Below, in pieces: positions 28,056-42,393 of a stretch of DNA of 64,000 bases (positions are counted from its first letter, which is position 1; each line of letters begins with the position of its first letter). The position numbers and the translations under genes are program-made. Origin of the DNA: a virus; IMG/VR virus record IMGVR_UViG_3300027963_000071, positions 2,909 through 66,908 of that record; one strand, written 5' to 3'. The notes under the pieces were generated by a model, which made no database searches, was not told where the DNA came from, and was given only the letters and a program-made list of their open reading frames with translations.

Positions 28056-28074
28056 GTTCGCTCCTTGTTGCTGT

Positions 28075-29238: not shown

Positions 29239-29301
29239 TGTCGCTCCTGTTATCTAACTATGTGCATAGTATAACAGGCATTAGCCAATTTGTCAACCAA
29301 T

Positions 29302-29968: not shown

Positions 29969-30073
29969 TGTCGCTCCTAACTGTTAATATGTATATATTA
30001 TAGCATCTTTTGGCGAAGTTGTCAACCGCTGGACAGCGGGGCCAGTGTGGCATTTGCGCCACACCTTGTGCGT

Positions 30074-30451
30074 TTACAACTCCATGCTCGCCATGCCGTC
30101 CTCTTGCATGCCCTGCTCTGTAAACATAACCTCTGTACCTAACAGTGTGCTAATCGCATCTGCAAAGCCCGTGTCTGTATACAGTCTCCAGCTGTCCTCA
30201 TACTCTGTGTCGCCGTTAACATTGTAGCACACTGTAATGTGTATGCTACTGTCGCCGTCCAATTCGTCCCACCATTGCTCGTGTATGTGTATGCTTGTAA
30301 CTGTAACTGCCTCTAGCTCGCAGTCCCATATACTGTCACCTGCAAGTTGCACCTCTACGTTGCAGTCGTATGTTGTGCTAATGCTGTCTTCGCTAGTGTC
30401 TGTACCTGCTAGTGTCAGTTTGTCGCTAACATTAAATTGTGTTGCTTGCAT
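30074..30451 (-). CDS. Acidic proline-free early protein
   Basis: 125 aa, D/E-rich, GGAGAG RBS. Confidence 0.65.
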   Translation of the reverse strand: MQATQFNVSDKLTLAGTDTSEDSISTTYDCNVEVQLAGDSIWDCELEAVTVTSIHIHEQWWDELDGDSSIHITVCYNVNGDTEYEDSWRLYTDTGFADAISTLLGTEVMFTEQGMQEDGMASMEL

Positions 30452-30608
30452 ATTGCTCTCCTACTAATTCCCAACCGTTTAACTCCGTAGCACACACGTC
30501 GTCTGCGTTAACTTCTATCTCGTCCGCCGCAACGTCTGCCGCCTCTTGTGTATCTGCATCTACGTGCAAATAAAATGTTTGTGTTTGCTTGTATACAAAT
30601 GTTGCCAT
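30432..30608 (-). CDS. 58-aa acidic protein (MATFVYKQTQTF...), not in the ORF track
   Basis: TAGGAG RBS; no Pro. Confidence 0.6.
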   Translation of the reverse strand: MATFVYKQTQTFYLHVDADTQEAADVAADEIEVNADDVCATELNGWELVGEQYASNTI

Positions 30609-30617
30609 GTTGTGCTC

Positions 30618-30773
30618 CTAATCTACGTAATATTCTACAGTTTGTGTTAGTGTGCTAAGTGCACCTTCTACTTCCGCAAAACAACTTAGCTGTGCAAGTT
30701 GCTCGCCGTCTAGTGTTGCCTCTAACAGCATTTCCTCTACTTCCGCTAGCTTTGCAAGTATTGCGTCTCTCAT
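30618..30773 (-). CDS. 51-aa acidic helical protein (MRDAILAKLAEVEEM...), not in the ORF track
   Basis: AAGGGA RBS; no Pro. Confidence 0.6.
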   Translation of the reverse strand: MRDAILAKLAEVEEMLLEATLDGEQLAQLSCFAEVEGALSTLTQTVEYYVD

Positions 30774-30783
30774 TGTGTGTCCC

Positions 30784-30945
30784 TTATGCTACTGCTTTGT
30801 AAACTGTTACTGTAGTGTCTGCAAAATCTGCATGTGCATTGTAAAACGCTTGTGCTCGTGCAATAGCGTCTTCTGCGCTAGTTGCTTTTACTACGCACAA
30901 ATCTTCTATGTTGTCGTAGCGCAAATAAACTGTGTATTTCTGCAT
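30784..30945 (-). CDS. 53-aa protein (MQKYTVYLRYDN...)
   Basis: AAAGGA RBS, own promoter; no Pro. Confidence 0.6.
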   Translation of the reverse strand: MQKYTVYLRYDNIEDLCVVKATSAEDAIARAQAFYNAHADFADTTVTVYKAVA

Positions 30946-31019
30946 TGTGTTTCCTTTACTGCTTAAAAACGTATTATAGCACACTTGCATCCAAAATGCA
31001 AGTGTTGTGCTAATAACCC

Positions 31020-31286
31020 TTACGCTAAGTCTGCTTTTACACGTACATACTGTCCGCCAAATGTGTATGTTGCAAAGTTGCTTGCAACACCTGTGCGTGT
31101 TACTTCGTTTGCACAAGTAGCACGTAAGTAGTTTGCTAACGTGTCCGCCGCCTGTGCATCTCTAAAACAAAATACTACTGTACGTCTTTTGCTTGCTTTG
31201 TTTTTAGTTGTCCTGTCCGTATAACTTGCGCTTACGCTAGTTACGTTACGTGCTAATGCACGTATTTGCTTTGTGTTAAACAACAT
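31020..31286 (-). CDS. 88-aa basic protein (MLFNTKQIRA...)
   Basis: AAGGAG RBS, own promoter; no Pro. Confidence 0.6.
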   Translation of the reverse strand: MLFNTKQIRALARNVTSVSASYTDRTTKNKASKRRTVVFCFRDAQAADTLANYLRATCANEVTRTGVASNFATYTFGGQYVRVKADLA

Positions 31287-31366
31287 ACTGCTCCTTTTAC
31301 TGCTTAAAAAACAATTATAGCACACAATTGCATTTTGGGCAAATTATGTGCTAATACTGTACTAAA

Positions 31367-31618
31367 TTACTCTACTATTACAATGTTGTTTGTGCGCAAC
31401 ATCTTTTGTGCTGTTATAATTGTGCGTTGCACCTCTGCATCTATGTTATCTGCAAGCAAATCTCCGCTTACATAGTTACATTGCTTTTGTACAGGAAAAC
31501 GCATTTTATAGTTAGTACCTACTAACTCTTTGTGTACGTTAAATGCAATTTGCATTTTGTAGGAATTAAGTTTTTTATTGTAAACTAGTTTTGCGTATGC
31601 TATGCACTGTGTTAACAT
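31367..31618 (-). CDS. Hypothetical early protein
   Basis: AAAGGA RBS; promoter at 31648-31676. Confidence 0.6.
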   Translation of the reverse strand: MLTQCIAYAKLVYNKKLNSYKMQIAFNVHKELVGTNYKMRFPVQKQCNYVSGDLLADNIDAEVQRTIITAQKMLRTNNIVIVE

Positions 31619-31678
31619 TGTGTGTCCTTTTGTGTGTGTAAGCATGTATTATAACGCACTTTGTCCAAAATGTCAACC

Positions 31679-31708
31679 AAAAAAAAAGACCCTACGTAAT
31701 GTAGGGCC
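31679..31708 (-). terminator. Intrinsic terminator, overlapping an ACCC-N11-GGG operator-like site
   Basis: GGCCCTAC-ATTAC-GTAGGGTC followed by a T run. Confidence 0.65.
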
Positions 31709-31738
31709 TTTCAAAGCCTAGATTCGGGAGCGAACCGT

Positions 31739-32044
31739 TTAGGCTGTTACAGCAGCCTTCACTGGAGCTGCTTGTTTAACCACGGGCGCAGCCTCGGGGT
31801 TTTTCTTGGCTACGTAAGCAATTGCGTCTGCAACAGCTTTGCGGCCTTTGGCGTAATCAACGTCAACAAGGTGTTGAGCAATCTCGCCCTTAGTCATTTC
31901 ACGTGGAAGATCAATGAGATCCACGTCCTGGTGACCGTTCTTGGCCAGGATCTTGATGCGCATTGCATCGTTGGCGAAACGGATCTTAGTTTTACCGCTA
32001 AGTGTACTAACGCCTGCTACGCTAAATTTCTTTTCAGTTGCCAT
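31739..32044 (-). CDS. Basic hypothetical protein
   Basis: FSVAGVS...KIRFAND; GAGG RBS. Confidence 0.65.
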   Translation of the reverse strand: MATEKKFSVAGVSTLSGKTKIRFANDAMRIKILAKNGHQDVDLIDLPREMTKGEIAQHLVDVDYAKGRKAVADAIAYVAKKNPEAAPVVKQAAPVKAAVTA

Positions 32045-32132
32045 TTGTGTTACCTCTTTCTGTGTGTGTTTAAGTTAGCTGCACTAGCAGCATGTTATTA
32101 TTGTAGCATCAAACTACCAAATCGTCAACCAT

Positions 32133-32330
32133 TCATTTGTCCAAATTCATTGGTATCACTTGAATGGTTACCGACTCCTTCTCGTCCAGGGCAACGATGA
32201 ACTCGTCGTCATAGACCAGATCCTGCATACTCAAGTCAATCAGTTCCTCGACTCGAGTCAAATTGGGTGTACCCTCTCCCGCACAGGTAACCCTAAACGT
32301 GTATACATATTCTCTAGTCATTGTTAACAT
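32133..32330 (-). CDS. Hypothetical protein
   Basis: GAGG RBS, coupled. Confidence 0.5.
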   Translation of the reverse strand: MLTMTREYVYTFRVTCAGEGTPNLTRVEELIDLSMQDLVYDDEFIVALDEKESVTIQVIPMNLDK

Positions 32331-32625
32331 ACCTCTTGGTAAACCGATCCTTTGCCAACAGCAGTGTGGTCATTGCTACATCACGGGCATAGATCGAACC
32401 ATACTCATCCCAACCCCAAATCGGCACTTCACGACCTAGAGCCACAAACGCAGTTGCTTCTGATTCTCTACAGCCCGGACCGTAGTTAGCCCACATCCAG
32501 TTGCGATACTCTAAGAAGTTCATTTGCCAGTCTGTGGCCGTCTTGAACCCTTCGGGATCCGTTCTGTGGGTCCAATGGCCCCAGCCATTGAACCTACGAT
32601 CCAGCTTCTTTAGAGTCTGCCTCAT
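32314..32625 (-). CDS. Trp-rich hypothetical protein
   Basis: ATGA coupling. Confidence 0.55.
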   Translation of the reverse strand: MRQTLKKLDRRFNGWGHWTHRTDPEGFKTATDWQMNFLEYRNWMWANYGPGCRESEATAFVALGREVPIWGWDEYGSIYARDVAMTTLLLAKDRFTKRYVNND

Positions 32626-33251
32626 TCTGAAACCAAACCCAACTTCTTGTTCTGCTCAACGCCATCTTTGATCCACTCAGTGAGCTCTTCTTCTTGCTCA
32701 GCCTCGTATTCAGCCATGCATTCTGAGATACCAAAAGCCTCGTCAAGTTCTACGGGCAAGTCCTGTTCTACCTGCGATGAATTCATACCCTCTAGGTTGT
32801 AGTATTCATCATTGCCTTCTTCCCAAACACCGCAGTAGGCCATGCCGGGTTCGTAATACATTGCGCCTACAGTAAAGCCCATTGCAGTCAACTTCTCGTA
32901 GGCCGCGATCGGAGGGCTCCATGCTGAGTCGAAGTAGGTGTGTAGCATCTTGCCATCCGGATGCACATCAGTTGTGCTATCAGCACCCACATCCCACTTG
33001 GTGCCCCACTCGTTGACCTGATAGTCATACCAGTTGCCATAACCGTATTTCTCTACATTCTCAGCAGTCTTACGCTCGAGTTCTGCCTGCTCAACAGGAT
33101 CACCAACGGATCCCGCGACTATCTGCAGATCCTTCGGCACTGGAATAAACTCACTCAGGAACTCTCCACGCTCAAGGGCCTCAGCGGCTCGCTTGATCAT
33201 TGCAGGGTCTTCGTGTTGCAGTGTTAAGTTGTTGTTGCACCAATTTGGCAT
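32622..33251 (-). CDS. YubB/DUF1281-like ferredoxin-fold protein
   Basis: MPNWCNNNL, WGTKWD, FDSAWSPP, YYEPG. Confidence 0.7.
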   Translation of the reverse strand: MPNWCNNNLTLQHEDPAMIKRAAEALERGEFLSEFIPVPKDLQIVAGSVGDPVEQAELERKTAENVEKYGYGNWYDYQVNEWGTKWDVGADSTTDVHPDGKMLHTYFDSAWSPPIAAYEKLTAMGFTVGAMYYEPGMAYCGVWEEGNDEYYNLEGMNSSQVEQDLPVELDEAFGISECMAEYEAEQEEELTEWIKDGVEQNKKLGLVSE

Positions 33252-33306
33252 AGTTCGCTCCTATGTGTTGTTAATATGTTTATTATACAGTCATTTGGAC
33301 AAAAAG

Positions 33307-33624
33307 TCAACCATGTTCTGCCAAGTGTTTGCAGGTACCTCGATAAGTGTATCCTGGGCAAGAGCAGGTTTTTGCGTCTGGGTCGACTGTGTAGACTTGA
33401 CCCTTAGAACCAGTGATTGTGATTGCATTTGATTTACTTTCTTTAAATGGATTTGGTTTAACTGCTTCAAACTGTCTGCCTCGCTTGTCGAAGCCTTTGA
33501 TTCCCTTCTTGAAGTAGATGGGACTCCGTGTGCCAGCCTTAATGTAGGCTACCAGTGTTGTCCCATCTAGGAGATAGACATGAGGGTGAAACTGTCCCCC
33601 AGTGGTTTCTCTCAACGCTTCCAT
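33307..33624 (-). CDS. SWIM zinc-finger protein
   Basis: YTV...CSCPGYTYRGTCKH. Confidence 0.75.
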   Translation of the reverse strand: MEALRETTGGQFHPHVYLLDGTTLVAYIKAGTRSPIYFKKGIKGFDKRGRQFEAVKPNPFKESKSNAITITGSKGQVYTVDPDAKTCSCPGYTYRGTCKHLAEHG

Positions 33625-33872
33625 CAGGAGTAATCCTTACGATCGCCGTAGAGTTCGTTGTAGGTGTATCCTGCTTGATACTCTGCTACTTCTTCAGCAG
33701 TCAGCGACTCAACACGGGCACCACTGTTGCCACCCACACCACCATAGTGCGGATCACGTGATCGACCGTAGTATGAATCGGCACTGCCACGATCAAACAG
33801 GCAACCGTGTTGCTTACGGTCCCACTGCCATCCCTTAAGGATCTTTAAAACTCTTTCTTGTTCTTCAATCAT
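33624..33872 (-). CDS. Hypothetical early protein
   Basis: FDRGSADSYYGR. Confidence 0.6.
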   Translation of the reverse strand: MIEEQERVLKILKGWQWDRKQHGCLFDRGSADSYYGRSRDPHYGGVGGNSGARVESLTAEEVAEYQAGYTYNELYGDRKDYS

Positions 33873-33910
33873 CTTCGCTCCTAACTATTCACTATACCTA
33901 TAGTATAACA

Positions 33911-34153
33911 TCAAACATCCAAACTGTCAACCGATTTGTAGTCTTTAACCATGACGTATAAAGGGTCAATACATTCCTTGCTTTCCACCACGTAGTTGTC
34001 ATCGTACCAATCGAGGAACTCTAGATCCGGGCCCTCAGCTTCGCAGTTGCCGGCTTTCTCTATGGCTTCTTCTTCGGTGTCAGCTTCGACCCAATAGGTT
34101 TCACACGTGATGCTTCTTCGGTATAGTTCGAATTTGAATTTCGGCATGAACAT
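33911..34153 (-). CDS. Acidic hypothetical early protein
   Basis: VEADTEEEAIEKA motif. Confidence 0.6.
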   Translation of the reverse strand: MFMPKFKFELYRRSITCETYWVEADTEEEAIEKAGNCEAEGPDLEFLDWYDDNYVVESKECIDPLYVMVKDYKSVDSLDV

Positions 34154-34219
34154 TCCTTATTGTCTATACCCATAGTATAGCACCAAAATGTCAAGTTGTC
34201 AATCGGTTTGGAAAAGACC

Positions 34220-34546
34220 CTACGAACGTCTGGGTTTTAGTAGAGCTGAAGCTTCTTTGCGTAGCCTGCCCGCTTCCTTATACATCGCGTCTGCTGTTTC
34301 CTTCATGACGTCGGAACGTGCTCGTGCCAGTTTGCCACCCCCGAACTCTCGCTCAACGTAGTAGCGGATCAAGCTATGCTGGATCATAGTAGGTAGATCC
34401 ATACCATGATCCTCTGGGCAGATAAAACGGACAGGGCTCATGCCCCATCCGCCGTATTCTAGAAACTCTGCATAATATCTACGGTGATCCTTATTGCTAG
34501 GATCAAATGCCACTAACGGACGTGCTAGATATTCCAGTTTGCTCAT
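34220..34546 (-). CDS. Hypothetical protein
   Basis: FDPSNKDHRRYY; TATAAATA just upstream. Confidence 0.6.
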   Translation of the reverse strand: MSKLEYLARPLVAFDPSNKDHRRYYAEFLEYGGWGMSPVRFICPEDHGMDLPTMIQHSLIRYYVEREFGGGKLARARSDVMKETADAMYKEAGRLRKEASALLKPRRS

Positions 34547-34547
34547 A

Positions 34548-34724
34548 TCAACTATTTATAGTCCCGTGTGGGCTGTATTCATCGCCCTCGTCGACATGTG
34601 TGTCTTGGAGCCAATCGTATACCAAGCTCAATGGAATGCCCAAGTTGCGAGCGATAGATGTAGGATGCTCACCTTCGATATACAGTTGCTCGATATCGTA
34701 TGCTACTTCTTTCAACATGCTCAT
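34548..34724 (-). CDS. Small helix-turn-helix protein, not in the ORF track
   Basis: LYIEGEHPTSIARNLGIPLSLVYDWL HTH pattern; ATGA-coupled to a 42-aa membrane ORF at 34721..34849. Confidence 0.6.
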   Translation of the reverse strand: MSMLKEVAYDIEQLYIEGEHPTSIARNLGIPLSLVYDWLQDTHVDEGDEYSPHGTINS

Positions 34725-35236
34725 CGCGCAATCTCCACAGATTTCTCTTTAACAGTGTCAACACCCTTGTCTAGCATACGTGCGATTCCAGAGAACCCCA
34801 CAGTTGCTAACACAAGCCCAAAGATTGTACCAAAGATAAATGCTCTCATGATTACTCCTCGAAGTTAGGTTGAGGTTGATTACGAAGGGCTCGTTTGTAC
34901 TTCCACATCGCGTACATCGTTTGAGGAATGCCAAGACGCCAAGCCCACATAACGTCCATGACAATCATACCTGCTAAGAATACTAAGATCATTTCCATAA
35001 CCGCTCCTATCTCTGTTAGTGTAAGTGTATTATAGCACCAATCTATCTAGATGTCAAGACCTAGATATACGCATACGTGTAGCAGCGGGGCCTAATAGCA
35101 GAGTGTGGCTTTTTAGCCACACCCCCTGGCACTCCTGTATAGGTGGGCACAGAGTTGGCACCGCGCATGGTTTTCTCTGTATTAAGGCTGTATCCTAGGA
35201 CAGTAAAGTTTTCCGCCAACAGCCACCCGTAGAACA

Positions 35237-36454
35237 TTAAGCCACTTCTTTCTCGTAGATAACAGTTTCGCCGAACGGTGCTTTGGCTTCTGTGTTACCT
35301 TTAACGATAAAGATTGTATCGCAGTAGTCCTCGTCACCCCAACTACCACATGGGTAGCCGTCTGTGAACATAATGAACTTCTTAGGAGTAATGCCGTTCT
35401 CTTTCATAAACTCCCAATTGGCTTCAAAGTCTGTGCCACCACCACCCTGAGGTTCATAGTCCATCAAGTCTTCACTGTTGTCATGTGTGATCTCTTGATG
35501 ATTGTAAATGGCTGTGTCAAAGCACCACAAGTTGATCTTGAAGTCTTCGTATTGATCCATAATGCCTTTGATCTCACCTAAGAAGGTTGAAGCATCCTCT
35601 TCGCCAATACTACCTGACATATCAATACCAATGCCTACGTCAATTGTAGTTGCTTCCTTCATGCCTGGAAGGATTGCGCCACAGTGAGCACTCTTACGAT
35701 TGAAACGCTGGAAGGAGAAGTCATTACGCACAATGCTCTGGATCTCTTGACGAACCAATTGACGCCAATCCATCTTAGGCTCTGTCATGTCTTTGATCAT
35801 ACGCTGGATTCCTGCAGGAACTTTGCCAGCACCAGCCGCCGCGGCACTTTGCACCATAGCCTGTTTGATCTCGTCACGGATAGCCTGTGCTTCTTCTTTA
35901 GTAAGGCTAGGCTTACCGCCGCTACCTTTGCCGTCTTTGCCTTCCTTGTCGCCAGCACCGGCACCTTCTTCTTCGTTAATGTGCTCGTCCAACAAGTCGC
36001 CCAGTTGCTGAAGCAGTTGTGGCATAGAGATCTTTTCTGCTTTCTCATACAATTGATCGTAGATCTCTTCCCAAGCCAAGCCGCGATATTTGTTATCTAA
36101 ACAGATCTTAACTTCAGTGATCTTCTCACCAATGCGTTCGTCTACAAGGATCTGGTTCACAGCGTAGTCTTGTGCTATGTTGCTGAGCTGACGATCGCGT
36201 GATCCAACACGACCAAAGTGATCAAAGATGCAGTGACATATCTCATGCCCAAAGAGGAACTCTAGTTTCTTTGTGCTGAGCTTCTTAACGAACTCTGTAT
36301 TGTAATAGAAGTCACGACCGTTAGTTGCCGCAGTAGGGCACCAGTCGTCTGCTTGGACTAAACGCATACGGGTTGCCATGTTGCCAAAGAACGGTGCTTT
36401 GAGCAATAAGCCGATACGGGCAGTTGTTAGTTTTTCTACGATTGGATCATTCAT
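35237..36454 (-). CDS. DUF2201-type putative metallopeptidase plus VWA-like domain
   Basis: PTAATNG, HEICH (HExxH), DMSGS MIDAS, GGGGTDF, FTDG. Confidence 0.85.
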   Translation of the reverse strand: MNDPIVEKLTTARIGLLLKAPFFGNMATRMRLVQADDWCPTAATNGRDFYYNTEFVKKLSTKKLEFLFGHEICHCIFDHFGRVGSRDRQLSNIAQDYAVNQILVDERIGEKITEVKICLDNKYRGLAWEEIYDQLYEKAEKISMPQLLQQLGDLLDEHINEEEGAGAGDKEGKDGKGSGGKPSLTKEEAQAIRDEIKQAMVQSAAAAGAGKVPAGIQRMIKDMTEPKMDWRQLVRQEIQSIVRNDFSFQRFNRKSAHCGAILPGMKEATTIDVGIGIDMSGSIGEEDASTFLGEIKGIMDQYEDFKINLWCFDTAIYNHQEITHDNSEDLMDYEPQGGGGTDFEANWEFMKENGITPKKFIMFTDGYPCGSWGDEDYCDTIFIVKGNTEAKAPFGETVIYEKEVA

Positions 36455-36567
36455 TGTTCGCTCTCCTTAGTATGTGTATATTATAGCATCGTTCTACACA
36501 TCTGTCAACCAAAAAAGGTGGACGGGCAAGCCCTGAGAAGCCCCCCGCCCGTGCTATGTTAGAGGTC

Positions 36568-37653
36568 TTAATTCTCCATAGCAGTCAAAACATACTTACC
36601 AAAACGCTTGTGGAACTCGCTAAACGACTCCATCTTAGTTGCGTCCAGTGGCAAGTCATAGTTGGTAAGTGCTGTCTTAGCACCCATCACAACCAACTCA
36701 GTTGGGAAATTATCCATCATGTAGCGGAAGAATTTGTCAGCCATAGCATCCCAACCTTTGGCTTTCTTCTCTGCACGGTCCTTCAACTCATAGCACAAAG
36801 AGACTGTCAATGAATACATCGCTGACACTTCTTTGATCTGCAGGTCCTTGACCTTACCGTCGAGGATGTCCTCTGCCTTAGGCAGTTTACCTGCAATCTT
36901 GCGGTGAGCCATAAACTTAACGCTCAAACCATCACCAATCGCACCAGCGATCAAGTTGTGCAGGGTATCCTGATCAGTGTCGTCATCTTTGAGCAAATCG
37001 CTAACGAACACCCAAGAGCGTGGAGTTGCAAATGCCTTTGAAGAACCCTTAGGGTCAAAGTCATACAAGTCCTGCTTGGCGAAGCCTACATAACCCACAA
37101 CCTCTGGATGCACCTTGTTAAGGGTAGCCCAGTCCTGGAAGTCGTCAAAGTCTACTTTGGCTTCCAAGTGGATGAAGCGGTTAGCCAGTGGGCTAGGCAT
37201 ACGGTATGTCACGCCACGGTCACCTTCGCGGTTACCTGCCGCGATGATGTCAACACCCTTAGGCAAACTGTATGTGCCAACTCGACGATTAAGCACCAAC
37301 TGATATGCCGCGGCTTGAACAGCCGGAGGAGCAGAGTTCAATTCATCCAAGAAGATGATTGCAGTAGACTCTGGGTCTGTAGGCAGTTCTGCTGGAGGAG
37401 CCCACACCATCTTGCCCATGTCACTGTTGTAATAAGGAATACCTTTAATGTCTGTAGGTTCCCACAGGGCTAGTCGAACGTCAACGACTTCGCGTCCTGC
37501 GTCATCGCCAATCTGTTTGACGATATCACTCTTGCCAATGCCTGGAGGGCCCCAAAGGAACACAGGACGGCGTGTGGTTAGTGCTTTGCGGATTGCTTTC
37601 TTAGCGGCTTTTGGGCCAACTAGACGAATGCTTTGATCTGTGTTTTTTGCCAT
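36568..37653 (-). CDS. MoxR-like AAA+ ATPase
   Basis: GPPGIGKS, FLDELN, AAGNR, LANRF, TPRSW. Confidence 0.85.
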   Translation of the reverse strand: MAKNTDQSIRLVGPKAAKKAIRKALTTRRPVFLWGPPGIGKSDIVKQIGDDAGREVVDVRLALWEPTDIKGIPYYNSDMGKMVWAPPAELPTDPESTAIIFLDELNSAPPAVQAAAYQLVLNRRVGTYSLPKGVDIIAAGNREGDRGVTYRMPSPLANRFIHLEAKVDFDDFQDWATLNKVHPEVVGYVGFAKQDLYDFDPKGSSKAFATPRSWVFVSDLLKDDDTDQDTLHNLIAGAIGDGLSVKFMAHRKIAGKLPKAEDILDGKVKDLQIKEVSAMYSLTVSLCYELKDRAEKKAKGWDAMADKFFRYMMDNFPTELVVMGAKTALTNYDLPLDATKMESFSEFHKRFGKYVLTAMEN

Positions 37654-37730
37654 TTTAAGACCTCTTTAAGTTTACGGGTTAAACAATTACTTTCTCAGTA
37701 TCATAAGTATAACACCAAATTGCTTTGCTG

Positions 37731-38360
37731 TCAACCGGTAGTTTTCACAAAGTTTAATTGTGTTGTATTATTGCCACGCTGGGCTTTTACTTTGCCCTTG
37801 ATTCCCACACGGCCCTCTAACGCTGTTCCGAACCAGAAGTCCACGAACGAATCCCCTAGCTTGGCAGTGATACGGAACTTGTTGTAGTCCTTACTGTAGA
37901 AGCTCTTGATCACTTCGATCTCTCCCTGGACGCGATCTCCTACAGCAGCACTCAGTTGGGTGGAGCTACGGATCTCGCTGTCTAGCTCCTTACGGCTTTC
38001 TTCTCGCAGCATAGCAGCTGGCAAGCAGCTGATGATGGCAAAGTCCAGCATGTCGCGCCCTGTGAACTCGTCCTTTTGGGCGATACGCAGTGCCTGACGC
38101 TCGAAGTCGTTGATCTTCCCGGACAGTTCCTTCAGCAGCAGGCCGTTGAAGTAATGACGGATCTCTTGTCCCTGGGTGATGTCTGCTGCTGTTGCAGCTG
38201 AGAAGTTGCCCTCGCGTAGCCAACCTTTGACTAGGGTCTTGTTGGCTGTTCGCAGGACTGTTACCATATCTTCTGCGAACTGAGCGTCTTTGAAGTAGCC
38301 ACCGTTGATACGATCTGCGGCTACGGCTAAACCCCATACCTGTTCTGCTGTGAATTGCAT
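37731..38360 (-). CDS. Hypothetical protein with possible C-terminal OB fold
   Basis: VGDRV...IKGKVK...TQLNFVK. Confidence 0.55.
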   Translation of the reverse strand: MQFTAEQVWGLAVAADRINGGYFKDAQFAEDMVTVLRTANKTLVKGWLREGNFSAATAADITQGQEIRHYFNGLLLKELSGKINDFERQALRIAQKDEFTGRDMLDFAIISCLPAAMLREESRKELDSEIRSSTQLSAAVGDRVQGEIEVIKSFYSKDYNKFRITAKLGDSFVDFWFGTALEGRVGIKGKVKAQRGNNTTQLNFVKTTG

Positions 38361-38438
38361 TCTCGCTCCTAATCTCTTAGTATGTGTCTATTATAACACT
38401 ATGTATCCAATTTGTCAACCAGGGAGTGCCGGCCAAGA

Positions 38439-38466
38439 AAAAAGGTGTTGTATTTCTACAACACCC
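38439..38466 (-). terminator. Intrinsic terminator, also a class A operator palindrome
   Basis: GGTGTTGT-AGAAAT-ACAACACC followed by a T run. Confidence 0.65.
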
Positions 38467-38516
38467 TCAAAAGACTCCCCGGGAGCGAATCGGCTTGTCT
38501 GTTTGAAACGGTTACT

Positions 38517-38798
38517 TTAGATTGTTTCTAAAGTGAAACCAGCTGCCTTAGCCTTGTAACCAAGTGCAACGATTTCGCGTGATGGCTTGCCCATTACGTA
38601 TTCGGTAACAGTCACACCATTGCCAGCCTTGCGGTTGTTGGCATAAACAGCGTAACCATGTTGACGGATACGTGAAGCTTCAGCGGCCAAGTTACCTACG
38701 CCGAATTGCTTAGTGGCTTGGCTCTGTGTTAGAGAAGCGCCATTGTAAAGTGCATTAAACACTTTGAAAGTTTTTGTATTTTTAGAAATACGTTTCAT
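38517..38798 (-). CDS. Winged-helix DNA-binding protein
   Basis: GASLTQSQATKQFGVGNLAAEASRIRQHGY. Confidence 0.6.
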   Translation of the reverse strand: MKRISKNTKTFKVFNALYNGASLTQSQATKQFGVGNLAAEASRIRQHGYAVYANNRKAGNGVTVTEYVMGKPSREIVALGYKAKAAGFTLETI

Positions 38799-38892
38799 TT
38801 GCCTTTTTCCTTTATTGTTATAGCTGAAGTTCATCAGCATTTTATTAGTATAAAGCCTTACCATTACCCTTGTCAAATCGCATATTACCGAT

Positions 38893-39093
38893 TTAACTCT
38901 TTTTGGAAATCTTAACCGGGCTACGAATAAACGTGCCCAAGATCAAGGTTGCCGCCCATGTCCAGAAGGTGTAGTCGATTGCGCACACCGATCCAAACAG
39001 AGTATTCCAGGCCCAAATTACAAAGAACGGTCCCGCAATTACTAAAATCAATACCAACACTGCCGCTATCGCGACACCCAAAGTCTTAAACAT
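38893..39093 (-). CDS. Small membrane protein
   Basis: Two hydrophobic helices. Confidence 0.6.
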   Translation of the reverse strand: MFKTLGVAIAAVLVLILVIAGPFFVIWAWNTLFGSVCAIDYTFWTWAATLILGTFIRSPVKISKKS

Positions 39094-40413: not shown

Positions 40414-40499
40414 TGTTTTCGCTCCAATGTTTGTTAGTAAGTCTCTATTATGCACTCAAACAAGGGCTTTGTCAACCCCTGTTTTGGCCCTGTTGTTAT

Positions 40500-40970: not shown

Positions 40971-41041
40971 AGTCGTCGCTCCTATTAAGTGTGTGTAAGC
41001 CTAGATTATAACACGGGCCGGAGCCCGTGTCAACCTCTTTT

Positions 41042-41395: not shown

Positions 41396-41434
41396 GCTTC
41401 GCTCCATGTTGTTAAGTAAGTGTATATTATATGC

Positions 41435-42149: not shown

Positions 42150-42315
42150 TGTTCGCTCCAATCTCTTACTATGCATATAGTATAACACCGATTGGGCCCG
42201 ATGTCAACCGTTATTTTGGTGCAAAAAAGCCACAGTTTGGCGATCCGCTGCGGCACTCTCCTTCCTGGATCGACCCTACTGCGGCTAGGGTTGTTCGCTG
42301 TTCACGAACGTGTTG

Positions 42316-42393
42316 TGGTGGGCCCTCCCAGAGTCGAACTGGGCACCAATGGATTATGAGTCCACTGCTCTAACCAACATGAGCTAAGGGCCC
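42316..42393 (-). tRNA. tRNA with CAU anticodon, most likely tRNA-Ile2 (lysidine type)
   Basis: GGGCCCTTAGCTCA...GGTTAGAGCA-GTGGA-CTCATAA-TCCAT...GTTCGA...GGGCCCACCA; cloverleaf with encoded CCA, resembles bacterial ileX. Confidence 0.9.

Follow-up and report, generated by a model that had tools for sequence, protein, structure and literature searches.

Conserved 3'UTR hairpins complementary to an extended Shine-Dalgarno sequence in the early region of an uncultured freshwater jumbo phage

Introduction

The end of the early programme of lytic phages is, to our knowledge, known in detail for a few model phages only, and is there brought about by proteins, such as RegA and RegB of T4. This report deals with two hairpins located in the 3' untranslated regions (3'UTRs) of early messages of an uncultured phage, known from the IMG/VR record IMGVR_UViG_3300027963_000071. 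The DNA analysed, hereafter called the window, is a stretch of 64,000 nucleotides (nt) spanning positions 2,909 to 66,908 of the record, and all coordinates refer to it. The hairpin at the lower coordinates is denominated site 1, the other site 2, and the genes preceding them carrier genes 1 and 2. The loops are complementary to an extended Shine-Dalgarno (SD) sequence, GGAGCGA, that precedes many early genes of the same phage, and the hairpins are candidate elements for the repression of these genes as a group.

RegA is a translational repressor of ~30 mRNAs, and RegB an endonuclease cutting GGAG in early SDs, according to the available part of PMC3014915. As described there, early messages are inactivated as a group, post-transcriptionally, through their translation initiation regions, and the same is proposed for the hairpins. 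The address label of RegB is, in the same part of PMC3014915, an SD with a 3' extension (GG*AGRAYARAA), in parallel to the extended SD of the window. The T4 effectors are proteins, whereas the effector proposed here is an RNA loop.

C4 of phages P1 and P7 is a looser parallel than RegA and RegB, being likewise a phage RNA derived from the same region as its targets. C4 loops reportedly pair with the region of the ribosome-binding site (RBS), as Citron and Schuster are said to have found in 1990. C4 is an antisense RNA that originates from the target region and blocks expression of downstream genes by pairing, as reported in the available part of PMC8198154. It is an immunity factor, located upstream of its one target operon. 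The hairpins reside instead in 3'UTRs of a jumbo phage that is apparently lytic, and at least 10 targets are predicted for them at dispersed positions; downstream of site 2, though not of site 1, the next SD is GGAGCGA.

In bacteria, anti-SD small RNAs (sRNAs) with C-rich or CUCC-containing loops include alpha-r14 and alpha-r15 of alpha-proteobacteria (loop CUCCUCCC), Listeria LhrC, and S. aureus RNAIII, RsaE and SprD (UCCC/CUCCC loops), as described in the available parts of PMC3346310 and PMC4132741. According to the same sources, these RNAs share with the elements analysed here a pyrimidine-rich hairpin loop beside a terminator, complementary to several SDs and sometimes repeated; two tandem loops are found here in some lineages. 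They differ because the hairpins are phage-encoded, lie in the 3'UTR of protein-coding mRNAs, match a phage-specific extended SD, GGAGCGAA, rather than the generic one, and have the phage's own early genes as predicted targets. In bacterial sRNAs derived from 3'UTRs, a conserved 3'UTR hairpin and the terminator of the mRNA form a module (PMC9731577, PMC12704781 and PMC13250501, in the parts available). Such a hairpin and terminator module is present here, as known from sequence, and a separate sRNA is only putative. In a limited search of the literature, no element in a phage 3'UTR was found to be directed at SDs of the same phage, which is weak evidence of absence.

Hairpins in two conserved-loop, variable-stem copies located before terminators, one following a helix-turn-helix (HTH) gene, also recall the nut sites of lambda. 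The lambda nutR/boxB hairpin, with its conserved loop and variable stem, is flanked by a small HTH gene and a terminator, and is found in two copies per genome.

Results

Complementarity between two 3'UTR hairpins and the early ribosome-binding sites

The 10-mer TTCGCTCCCG occurs twice in the window, at 31725-31734 and 38480-38489, on the minus strand in both instances. The expected number of copies is 0.03, and two copies were reached in 0/100 shuffled sequences. As the first-pass annotation had noticed, each copy sits between a stop codon (31741-31739 and 38519-38517, respectively) and a terminator, one of the two strong early terminators. Each carrier is a short monocistronic unit ending in hairpin plus terminator. 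As expected of sRNAs released from 3'UTRs, the hairpins lie between the stop codon and the intrinsic terminator of the parental message, and are conserved beyond their flanks. UUCGCUCC, which does not vary at either site, is perfectly complementary to GGAGCGAA.

GGAGCGA is found 14 times in the window versus 2.97 copies expected; the maximum among 100 shuffled sequences was 8, and none reached 14. The minus strand holds 11 copies, and 10 of these lie 2-8 nt before the ATG of an open reading frame (ORF) of at least 40 amino acids. The proposal that GGAGCGA serves as extended RBS of many early genes is therefore borne out by ten sites, all at the positions originally listed, except for the one placed at 38362, which is actually 38363-38369. 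A near-consensus -10 hexamer is located ~20 nt upstream of 9/10 of these RBSs, and the SDs begin only 13-16 nt into the mRNA, if transcripts are assumed to start 7 nt after the -10. CGA follows GGAG in 10/36 GGAG-type RBS candidates of the contig, all ten in the early region, while the runner-up triplet occurs three times. The complement of the exact 7-mer is thus present at 10 RBS positions, at 6 of which it extends to 8 nt. A near-variant target starting at 36466, GGAGAGCGAAC, is an addition to the sites first listed. The usual SD does not account for the CGA extension. The match between eight invariant nucleotides and a conserved SD extension would be a very unlikely coincidence if loop and SD did not pair.

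Conservation and structure of the hairpins

Loci around relatives of both carrier genes were taken from IMG/VR. At site 2, the 10-mer is found at the homologous place in 73 of 80 loci featuring the winged-helix gene that precedes it; six loci lack it, and one is truncated 8 nt after the stop codon. Flanks vary widely in these relatives, and CCGATTCGCTCCCGGGG is unchanged. At site 1, the hairpin is present in all 12 loci with carrier gene 1 (8 distinct). The 7-mer is exact in 11, and the remaining locus, L083, has one U inserted in the loop. Conservation in relatives, on which the initial proposal depended, is accordingly found at both sites. Across all relatives, the two sites have in common only UUCGCUCC with a purine (A or G) before it.

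An ungapped alignment was made of 49 distinct elements of 53 nt, two from the window and 47 from relatives, leaving out L083 and truncated copies. Elements were chosen by a regular expression requiring the loop core, so that invariance of the core in this set is by construction. A 3-bp inner stem is paired in 98.6% of the 147 cells, and all three pairs feature compensatory changes; the observed values were reached in 0/500 shuffles. Sliding the partner strand makes pairing drop to 31-64%. RNAalifold revealed an additional outer helix, in which three pairs show 17-20 double changes each. The 9-nt loop is open in the minimum free energy (MFE) fold of 34/49 elements, versus a mean of 8.2 (maximum 15) when flanks are shuffled, and the pairs enclosing the loop are on average 11.8 versus 6.9. 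The family-wide structure is therefore a 9-nt loop, RUUCGCUCC, on a short covarying closing stem. As a new structured RNA motif, the hairpin is well supported whatever its mechanism.

The fold GGUUCG-CUCC-CGAAUC, originally described for the first copy, is indeed the MFE structure of site 1 in this phage, but differs from the structure of the family. Site 1 prefers this stem with a CUCC tetraloop, which exposes CUCC only, and opening costs 4.51 kcal/mol. At site 2 the loop is open in the MFE structure. The probability of being unpaired is 0.89-0.98 per nt, opening the 8-mer costs 0.09 kcal/mol, and the C/U-rich motif is thus unpaired in a hairpin loop, as in the anti-SD sRNAs. The UUCG at which the loop begins presumably corresponds to the YUNR motif, a U-turn of loops engaged in antisense recognition. 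The letters CUUUGA or CUUUUGA follow the two copies as first reported, but do not constitute a separate motif common to both sites: in relatives they are the 3' side of the outer helix at site 2, and part of the terminator stem at site 1.

Four lineages (L040, L108, L157, L160) host pairs of tandem hairpins with an identical 9-nt loop and unrelated stems, CCUAGG/CCUAGG or CCUUGG/CCAAGG in the first, CCG/CGG in the second. In another lineage (L013, L044, L054, L097) a second TCGCTCC (CGCTCC in L054) directly follows the winged-helix stop codon, 25 nt before the loop copy. On the minus strand, the interval separating terminator 2 from the next -35 contains a box, CCGGCACTC(C), at 38424-38432. 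Most site 2 relatives conserve it, and the window has a single copy. The box could be an operator, perhaps recognised by the winged-helix protein encoded next to it, or could contribute to a structure formed upon read-through.

Distribution of the element

A covariance model, R1, detected in the window only two copies, site 2 (58.2 bits) and site 1 (26.5 bits), the next hit scoring 12.2. Two strong syntenic copies, 6-8 kb apart, were found in 5/5 related records, and none in five other records, among which is a complete genome of 357.6 kb. No family of Rfam 15 reached its gathering score. The best match was RF00519 (suhB / mmgR), which scored 22.9 bits versus the 41 required, at site 1 only, the alignment being restricted to GUUCGCUCCC plus the terminator. 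Membership in the sequence family of the C-rich loop sRNAs is hence not indicated. At site 2, the best Rfam hits (16.6 and 11 bits) belong to unrelated families.

The element is absent from GenBank phages, as blastn gave nothing relevant. By tblastn, the winged-helix protein matched only a distant Pelagibacter phage (37.5% identity), and for this reason there is no cultured relative to examine. Scanning 185,579 prokaryote genomes with a 17-mer returned 102 stretches, about the chance level by an estimate based on the size of the collection. Among the 80 stretches listed, model R1 gave only four (L177, L195, L220, L221) a score clearly higher than the 17-mer baseline. These were considered as a lead to the host and discarded, being short contigs of metagenome-assembled genomes from four unrelated taxa, most likely mis-binned phage fragments. 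No host lead was thus obtained from the scan. The element is phage-specific, because prokaryote hits are about as many as expected by chance, and the only true copies among the stretches listed are those on the four short unrelated contigs.

The extended SD in relatives and its association with the hairpin

Relatives yielded 350 distinct promoter-leader cassettes, all loci included; the set contains orthologues, and cassettes are hence not independent. A GGAG SD is present in 249, and in 158 of these it is GGAGCGA. After GGAG, C is found in 81%, G in 90% and A in 68% of cases, and the following position is A in 53%. Leader positions 2-4 nt before the SD are at most 56% conserved, and those after the motif at most 53%. 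A conserved extended SD needs to be explained even if the mechanism differs from the one proposed below.

The pattern GGAGCGA-N1-8-ATG occurs 9-14 times per record in four records bearing the hairpin, mostly clustered near the hairpins, and once in the complete 357.6-kb relative lacking it. The reversed pattern, used as control, occurs 0-1 times per record. For a comparison by lineage, 141 loci were considered; the winged-helix gene is present in 133, and the 130 with enough downstream sequence correspond to 70 distinct proteins. The hairpin is found in 49/70 of these lineages. All 49 feature at least one GAGCGA-type RBS in the locus, and 48 at least two. In contrast, 19 of the 21 lineages lacking the hairpin have no GAGCGA-type RBS in the locus. 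In the best tree of the winged-helix protein (90 columns), the state of the hairpin changes five times, and the state of the SD follows. The association is consistent with co-evolution of hairpin and SD motif, short of proof.

Some loci lacking the hairpin (L109, L112, L116, L117, L122, L124, L129) feature a 14-nt palindrome, GGWTAGGCCTAWCC, at the equivalent place after the winged-helix gene, with an A/T to T/A compensatory change among them. In several (L112, L124 and others), the next ATG lies less than ~10 nt after the -10; the genes look leaderless, and GGAGCGA is missing.

Carrier mRNAs

Both carrier genes use SDs other than GGAGCGA. The SD of carrier gene 2 is AAAGGAAA, and AAAGGAAA-type sequences are found in the leaders of 37 distinct relatives as in the window, never GGAGCGA. 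Carrier gene 1 has AAAGAGG; nine distinct leaders are mostly of the AAGAGG type, and GGAGCGA is found in 0/9. Carrier gene 1 has no family match in PHROG and Pfam scans. Both leaders open with a small stem-loop (at ~38839-38824 and ~32091-32078, minus strand), whose stems covary among relatives, as in GCUGA...UCAGC, GCUGUU...AACAGC and GUUGAU...AUCAAC. These stem-loops are probably 5' stabilisers. The build of the carriers suggests stable RNAs escaping their own anti-SD sequence. Promoter-like sites were not detected by the promoter scan in the 3' part of either carrier gene.

Pairing energies and RNA libraries

Perfect duplexes of 7, 8 and 9 bp between loop and SD have computed energies of -11.4, -12.4 and -13.4 kcal/mol, and opening the SD in modelled leaders costs 0.7-4.4 kcal/mol. 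When 130 crudely defined gene starts are ranked by duplex energy with the loop, 11 early genes are found in the top 12, which attain -12.6 kcal/mol or lower. Energies of -10 kcal/mol or lower are attained by 12/40 early starts versus 5/90 of the others.

Parts of the stretch are held in 20 public metatranscriptome runs. The contigs of four were compared, and both carrier genes are covered. Two contigs stop near the hairpins: an error-free one (run X2) at 31717, immediately ahead of terminator 1, and another (run X4) at 38484, inside loop 2, where adapter letters are attached; RNA ends are not readable from contigs. Word depth is high over 38428-38900 and near zero over 38177-38427; expression is not readable from contigs, and uncovered stretches mean nothing. 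The region is present in RNA libraries, which is a weak hint only.

The early region and the phage

The window derives from a single contig of 66.9 kb with a G+C content of 42%. PHROG and Pfam scans covered 20 window proteins, and are the only searches by which RegA/RegB homologues might have surfaced. The larger proteins match phage families of helicases, including a DnaB-like one, primase, ligase and ATPases. For one window protein, only distant relatives (at most 44% identity) were found, encoded by jumbo phages with genomes of 280-490 kb, and a 10-kb segment had no megablast match among GenBank phages. Because related IMG/VR records reach 280 kb (estimated completeness 79%) and 357.6 kb (100%), the contig is part of the genome of an uncultured freshwater jumbo phage, ~350 kb in size. 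The public RNA runs holding parts of the stretch carry freshwater or lake water labels.

A block of genes at ~25.8-44.4 kb is encoded by the minus strand and features 20 promoter-like sites, which fit the sigma-70 consensus at 11-12/12 positions; it is an early region, transcribed by the host polymerase. Terminator hairpins with 12 pairs are only two on the minus strand between 27 and 45 kb (31712-31684 and 38468-38441), and both are followed by a consensus promoter. Other strong terminators are few in the 7-27 kb and 44-64 kb intervals, according to terminator scans. A tRNA-Met gene (anticodon CAT) lies within the early region, at 42316-42393 on the minus strand. The features of the region are collected in Table 1.

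Table 1. Carrier units, hairpins, terminators and predicted target SDs in the window
Feature	Coordinates	Strand	Description
Predicted target SD GGAGCGA	28058..28064	-	gene 28055-27762
Predicted target SD GGAGCGA	29241..29247	-	gene 29238-28924
Predicted target SD GGAGCGA	29971..29977	-	gene 29968-29711
Intrinsic terminator 1	31676..31712	-	12-pair stem + U9, directly 3' of hairpin 1
Hairpin 1	31715..31745	-	outer helix AGCCUA/UAGGCU including the stop codon; loop region GUUCGCUCC at 31735-31727
Carrier gene 1	31739..32044	-	101 amino acids
Carrier gene 1 promoter	32128-32100	-	
Predicted target SD GGAGCGA	33255..33261	-	gene 33251-32622
Predicted target SD GGAGCGA	33875..33881	-	gene 33872-33624
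Variant predicted target SD GGAGAGCGA(AC)	36458..36466	-	gene 36454-35237; pairs with UUCGCUC, -12.6 kcal/mol
Predicted target SD GGAGCGA	38363..38369	-	gene 38360-37731, first after terminator 2
Intrinsic terminator 2	38435..38468	-	12-pair stem + U run, directly 3' of hairpin 2
Hairpin 2	38466..38507	-	9-nt loop AUUCGCUCC (38490-38482); irregular outer helix UUCAAACAGAC.../...GUCUUUUGA; 3-bp inner stem CCG/CGG
Carrier gene 2	38517..38798	-	winged-helix protein, ~93 amino acids from conserved ATG; Pfam HTH_39, 29.4 bits; phrog_4973
Carrier gene 2 promoter	38876-38847	-	
Predicted target SD GGAGCGA	40419..40425	-	gene 40413-39340
Predicted target SD GGAGCGA	40976..40982	-	gene 40970-40500
Predicted target SD GGAGCGA	41399..41405	-	gene starts 41395
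Predicted target SD GGAGCGA	42153..42159	-	gene starts 42149

The plus strand is devoid of any GG or GA for 1287 nt, from 30050 to 31336, and minus-strand mRNA consequently lacks UC and CC there. The existence of this island and the absence of GGAGCGA sites from it, both reported by the first-pass annotation, hold true, as none of the ten sites falls within 30050-31336. The island begins right after terminator 1 and its promoter, and 5/6 of its ORFs have no proline. Further runs free of GA and GG are found at 31339-31493, 31564-31687 and 31983-32151. Similar runs follow hairpin 1 in L084 (1613 nt), L090 and L099 (949 nt) and L102 (619 nt); none was found at this place in L081, L086 and L092. 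It may be speculated that the asymmetry reflects selection on RNA or single-stranded DNA, for instance to evade a nuclease or a TC/CC-specific deaminase.

Discussion

The complementarity first noticed between the two 3'UTR elements and the early RBSs is confirmed, and is stronger than initially described. Its interpretation, according to which phage 3'UTR sRNAs shut off early translation as a group, appears partly supported by the conserved structured loop, the two syntenic copies, the co-occurrence with the SD motif and the avoidance of this motif by the carriers. It is proposed, with moderate confidence, that the hairpins are anti-SD RNA elements repressing SD-labelled early genes as a group. 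Two monocistronic early mRNAs end in a conserved hairpin directly before an intrinsic terminator. In this model, the 9-nt loop, R-UUCGCUCC, would be an anti-SD adapted to the extended SD of the phage itself, (A)GGAGCGA(A), by which about half of the promoter-proximal early genes are marked. Pairing of the loop with the short early leaders would block binding of the 30S subunit, and translation of the marked genes would be lowered as a group. Pairing would take place in trans, because most predicted targets lie in other transcription units. The active form could be either the full-length mRNA or a released 3'UTR-derived sRNA made up of hairpin and terminator. Carrier mRNAs would be exempt, because their SDs differ from GGAGCGA.

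Several observations weigh against this proposal. At site 1 of this phage, UUCG is predicted to be hidden in a stem (4.51 kcal/mol to open). The loop is constant but for the L083 insertion, and no compensatory change between loop and SD, which sequence comparison could offer as its strongest evidence, can be observed for this reason. The exact motif is found in only 158/350 cassettes. Supported branches of the winged-helix tree force only one change, and a sign test cannot reach significance. The energy threshold of -10 kcal/mol discriminates weakly, as shuffled loops pass it, on average, at 5 of the 40 early starts, and at up to 19, because any loop containing CUCC pairs with GGAG. Eight contiguous pairs within a 9-nt loop are sterically demanding, and initial pairing may involve only part of them. 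Stoichiometry is unfavourable, with two sources facing at least 10 targets that are located behind consensus promoters. Finally, the RNA evidence consists of contigs, from which strand, ends, levels and small RNAs are not readable, and the libraries may hold DNA.

It is unlikely, though worth weighing, that the loop is instead the operator of a phage or host protein, as a nut/boxB-like antitermination site, or a stability or processing signal, its complementarity to the SD being incidental. An invariant loop on covarying stems is typical of hairpins bound by proteins, the two copies per genome lie each immediately 5' of a terminator, the product of carrier gene 2 is a winged-helix protein, and the succession of small HTH gene, hairpin and terminator resembles the cro-nutR-tR1 layout of lambda. 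Yet the loop, R-UUCGCUCC, with 9 nt and SD-complementary, is no boxB-type pentaloop, which is 5 nt long and GNRA-like. Unlike in lambda nutR, a consensus promoter follows each terminator, and read-through is therefore dispensable for the downstream genes. Neither RNA-binding protein families nor N-like antiterminators were found among the neighbouring proteins scanned against PHROG and Pfam, although no dedicated boxA or N search was made. With a protein operator, three observations would also be left unexplained: the perfect complementarity of eight invariant nt to the conserved extended SD in use by the phage, the shared presence or absence of hairpin and SD motif, and the avoidance of GGAGCGA by the carrier genes.

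That pairing is real and has a different outcome is deemed quite unlikely. Early mRNAs could be protected or activated, the abundant early leaders could alter the stability or termination of carrier mRNAs, or the main targets could be host RNAs. The evidence for pairing would be identical and does not fix the direction of regulation, and the 5' stem-loops and structured 3' ends of the carriers suggest regulated stability. However, pairing over an SD normally blocks initiation, as established for C-rich loop sRNAs in the available parts of PMC3346310 and PMC4132741, and for this reason group repression is favoured. Many targets and few sources also fit a regulator residing in the hairpin.

Only a slim chance is granted to an insulator in cis, in which the loop of read-through RNA would pair with the SD of the next gene, ~110 nt downstream, and silence it, so that the gene is translated only from its own promoter. 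After site 2, the SD of the next gene is indeed GGAGCGA both in the window (38369-38363) and in most relatives shown, but the motif is so common among the cassettes that such a match is expected anyway. After site 1, the SD is AAAAGGA in the window, and in relatives only sometimes related to the motif, yet the hairpin is present in 12/12 loci; moreover, both terminators look strong, with 12-pair stems and long U runs.

A site acting at the DNA level, as an operator or recombination site used in both orientations, is scarcely credible, as is chance: a DNA motif would read as its complement on the opposite strand, and a CCCGGG palindrome is found inside site 2, but the flanking stems vary in a compensatory manner, which indicates a folded single strand and largely refutes this view, orientation is fixed, with SD copies all before ATGs and both complements in 3'UTRs, and chance is excluded by the 0.03 10-mers expected and by conservation.

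Repression by anti-SD hairpins, if pursued further, leads to a tentative picture in which a clade of freshwater jumbo phages possesses a private SD/anti-SD code. About half of the early genes would be labelled by GGAGCGAA, two stable early mRNAs would carry the matching loop in their 3'UTR, and the accumulation of these mRNAs would switch the labelled genes off together. The hairpins would constitute a new RNA family and an example, for which limited searches gave no published precedent, of a phage 3'UTR element directed at SDs of the same phage. The SD and anti-SD would form a compact, portable pair, directly testable in reporters. If the proposal is true, a large uncultured clade of ~350-kb freshwater phages would end its early programme with a 9-nt RNA loop in 3'UTRs, which would recognise its targets by a sequence label contained in their ribosome-binding sites. 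Such a system would be the counterpart of T4 RegA and RegB while consisting of RNA only, and would need no gene of its own.

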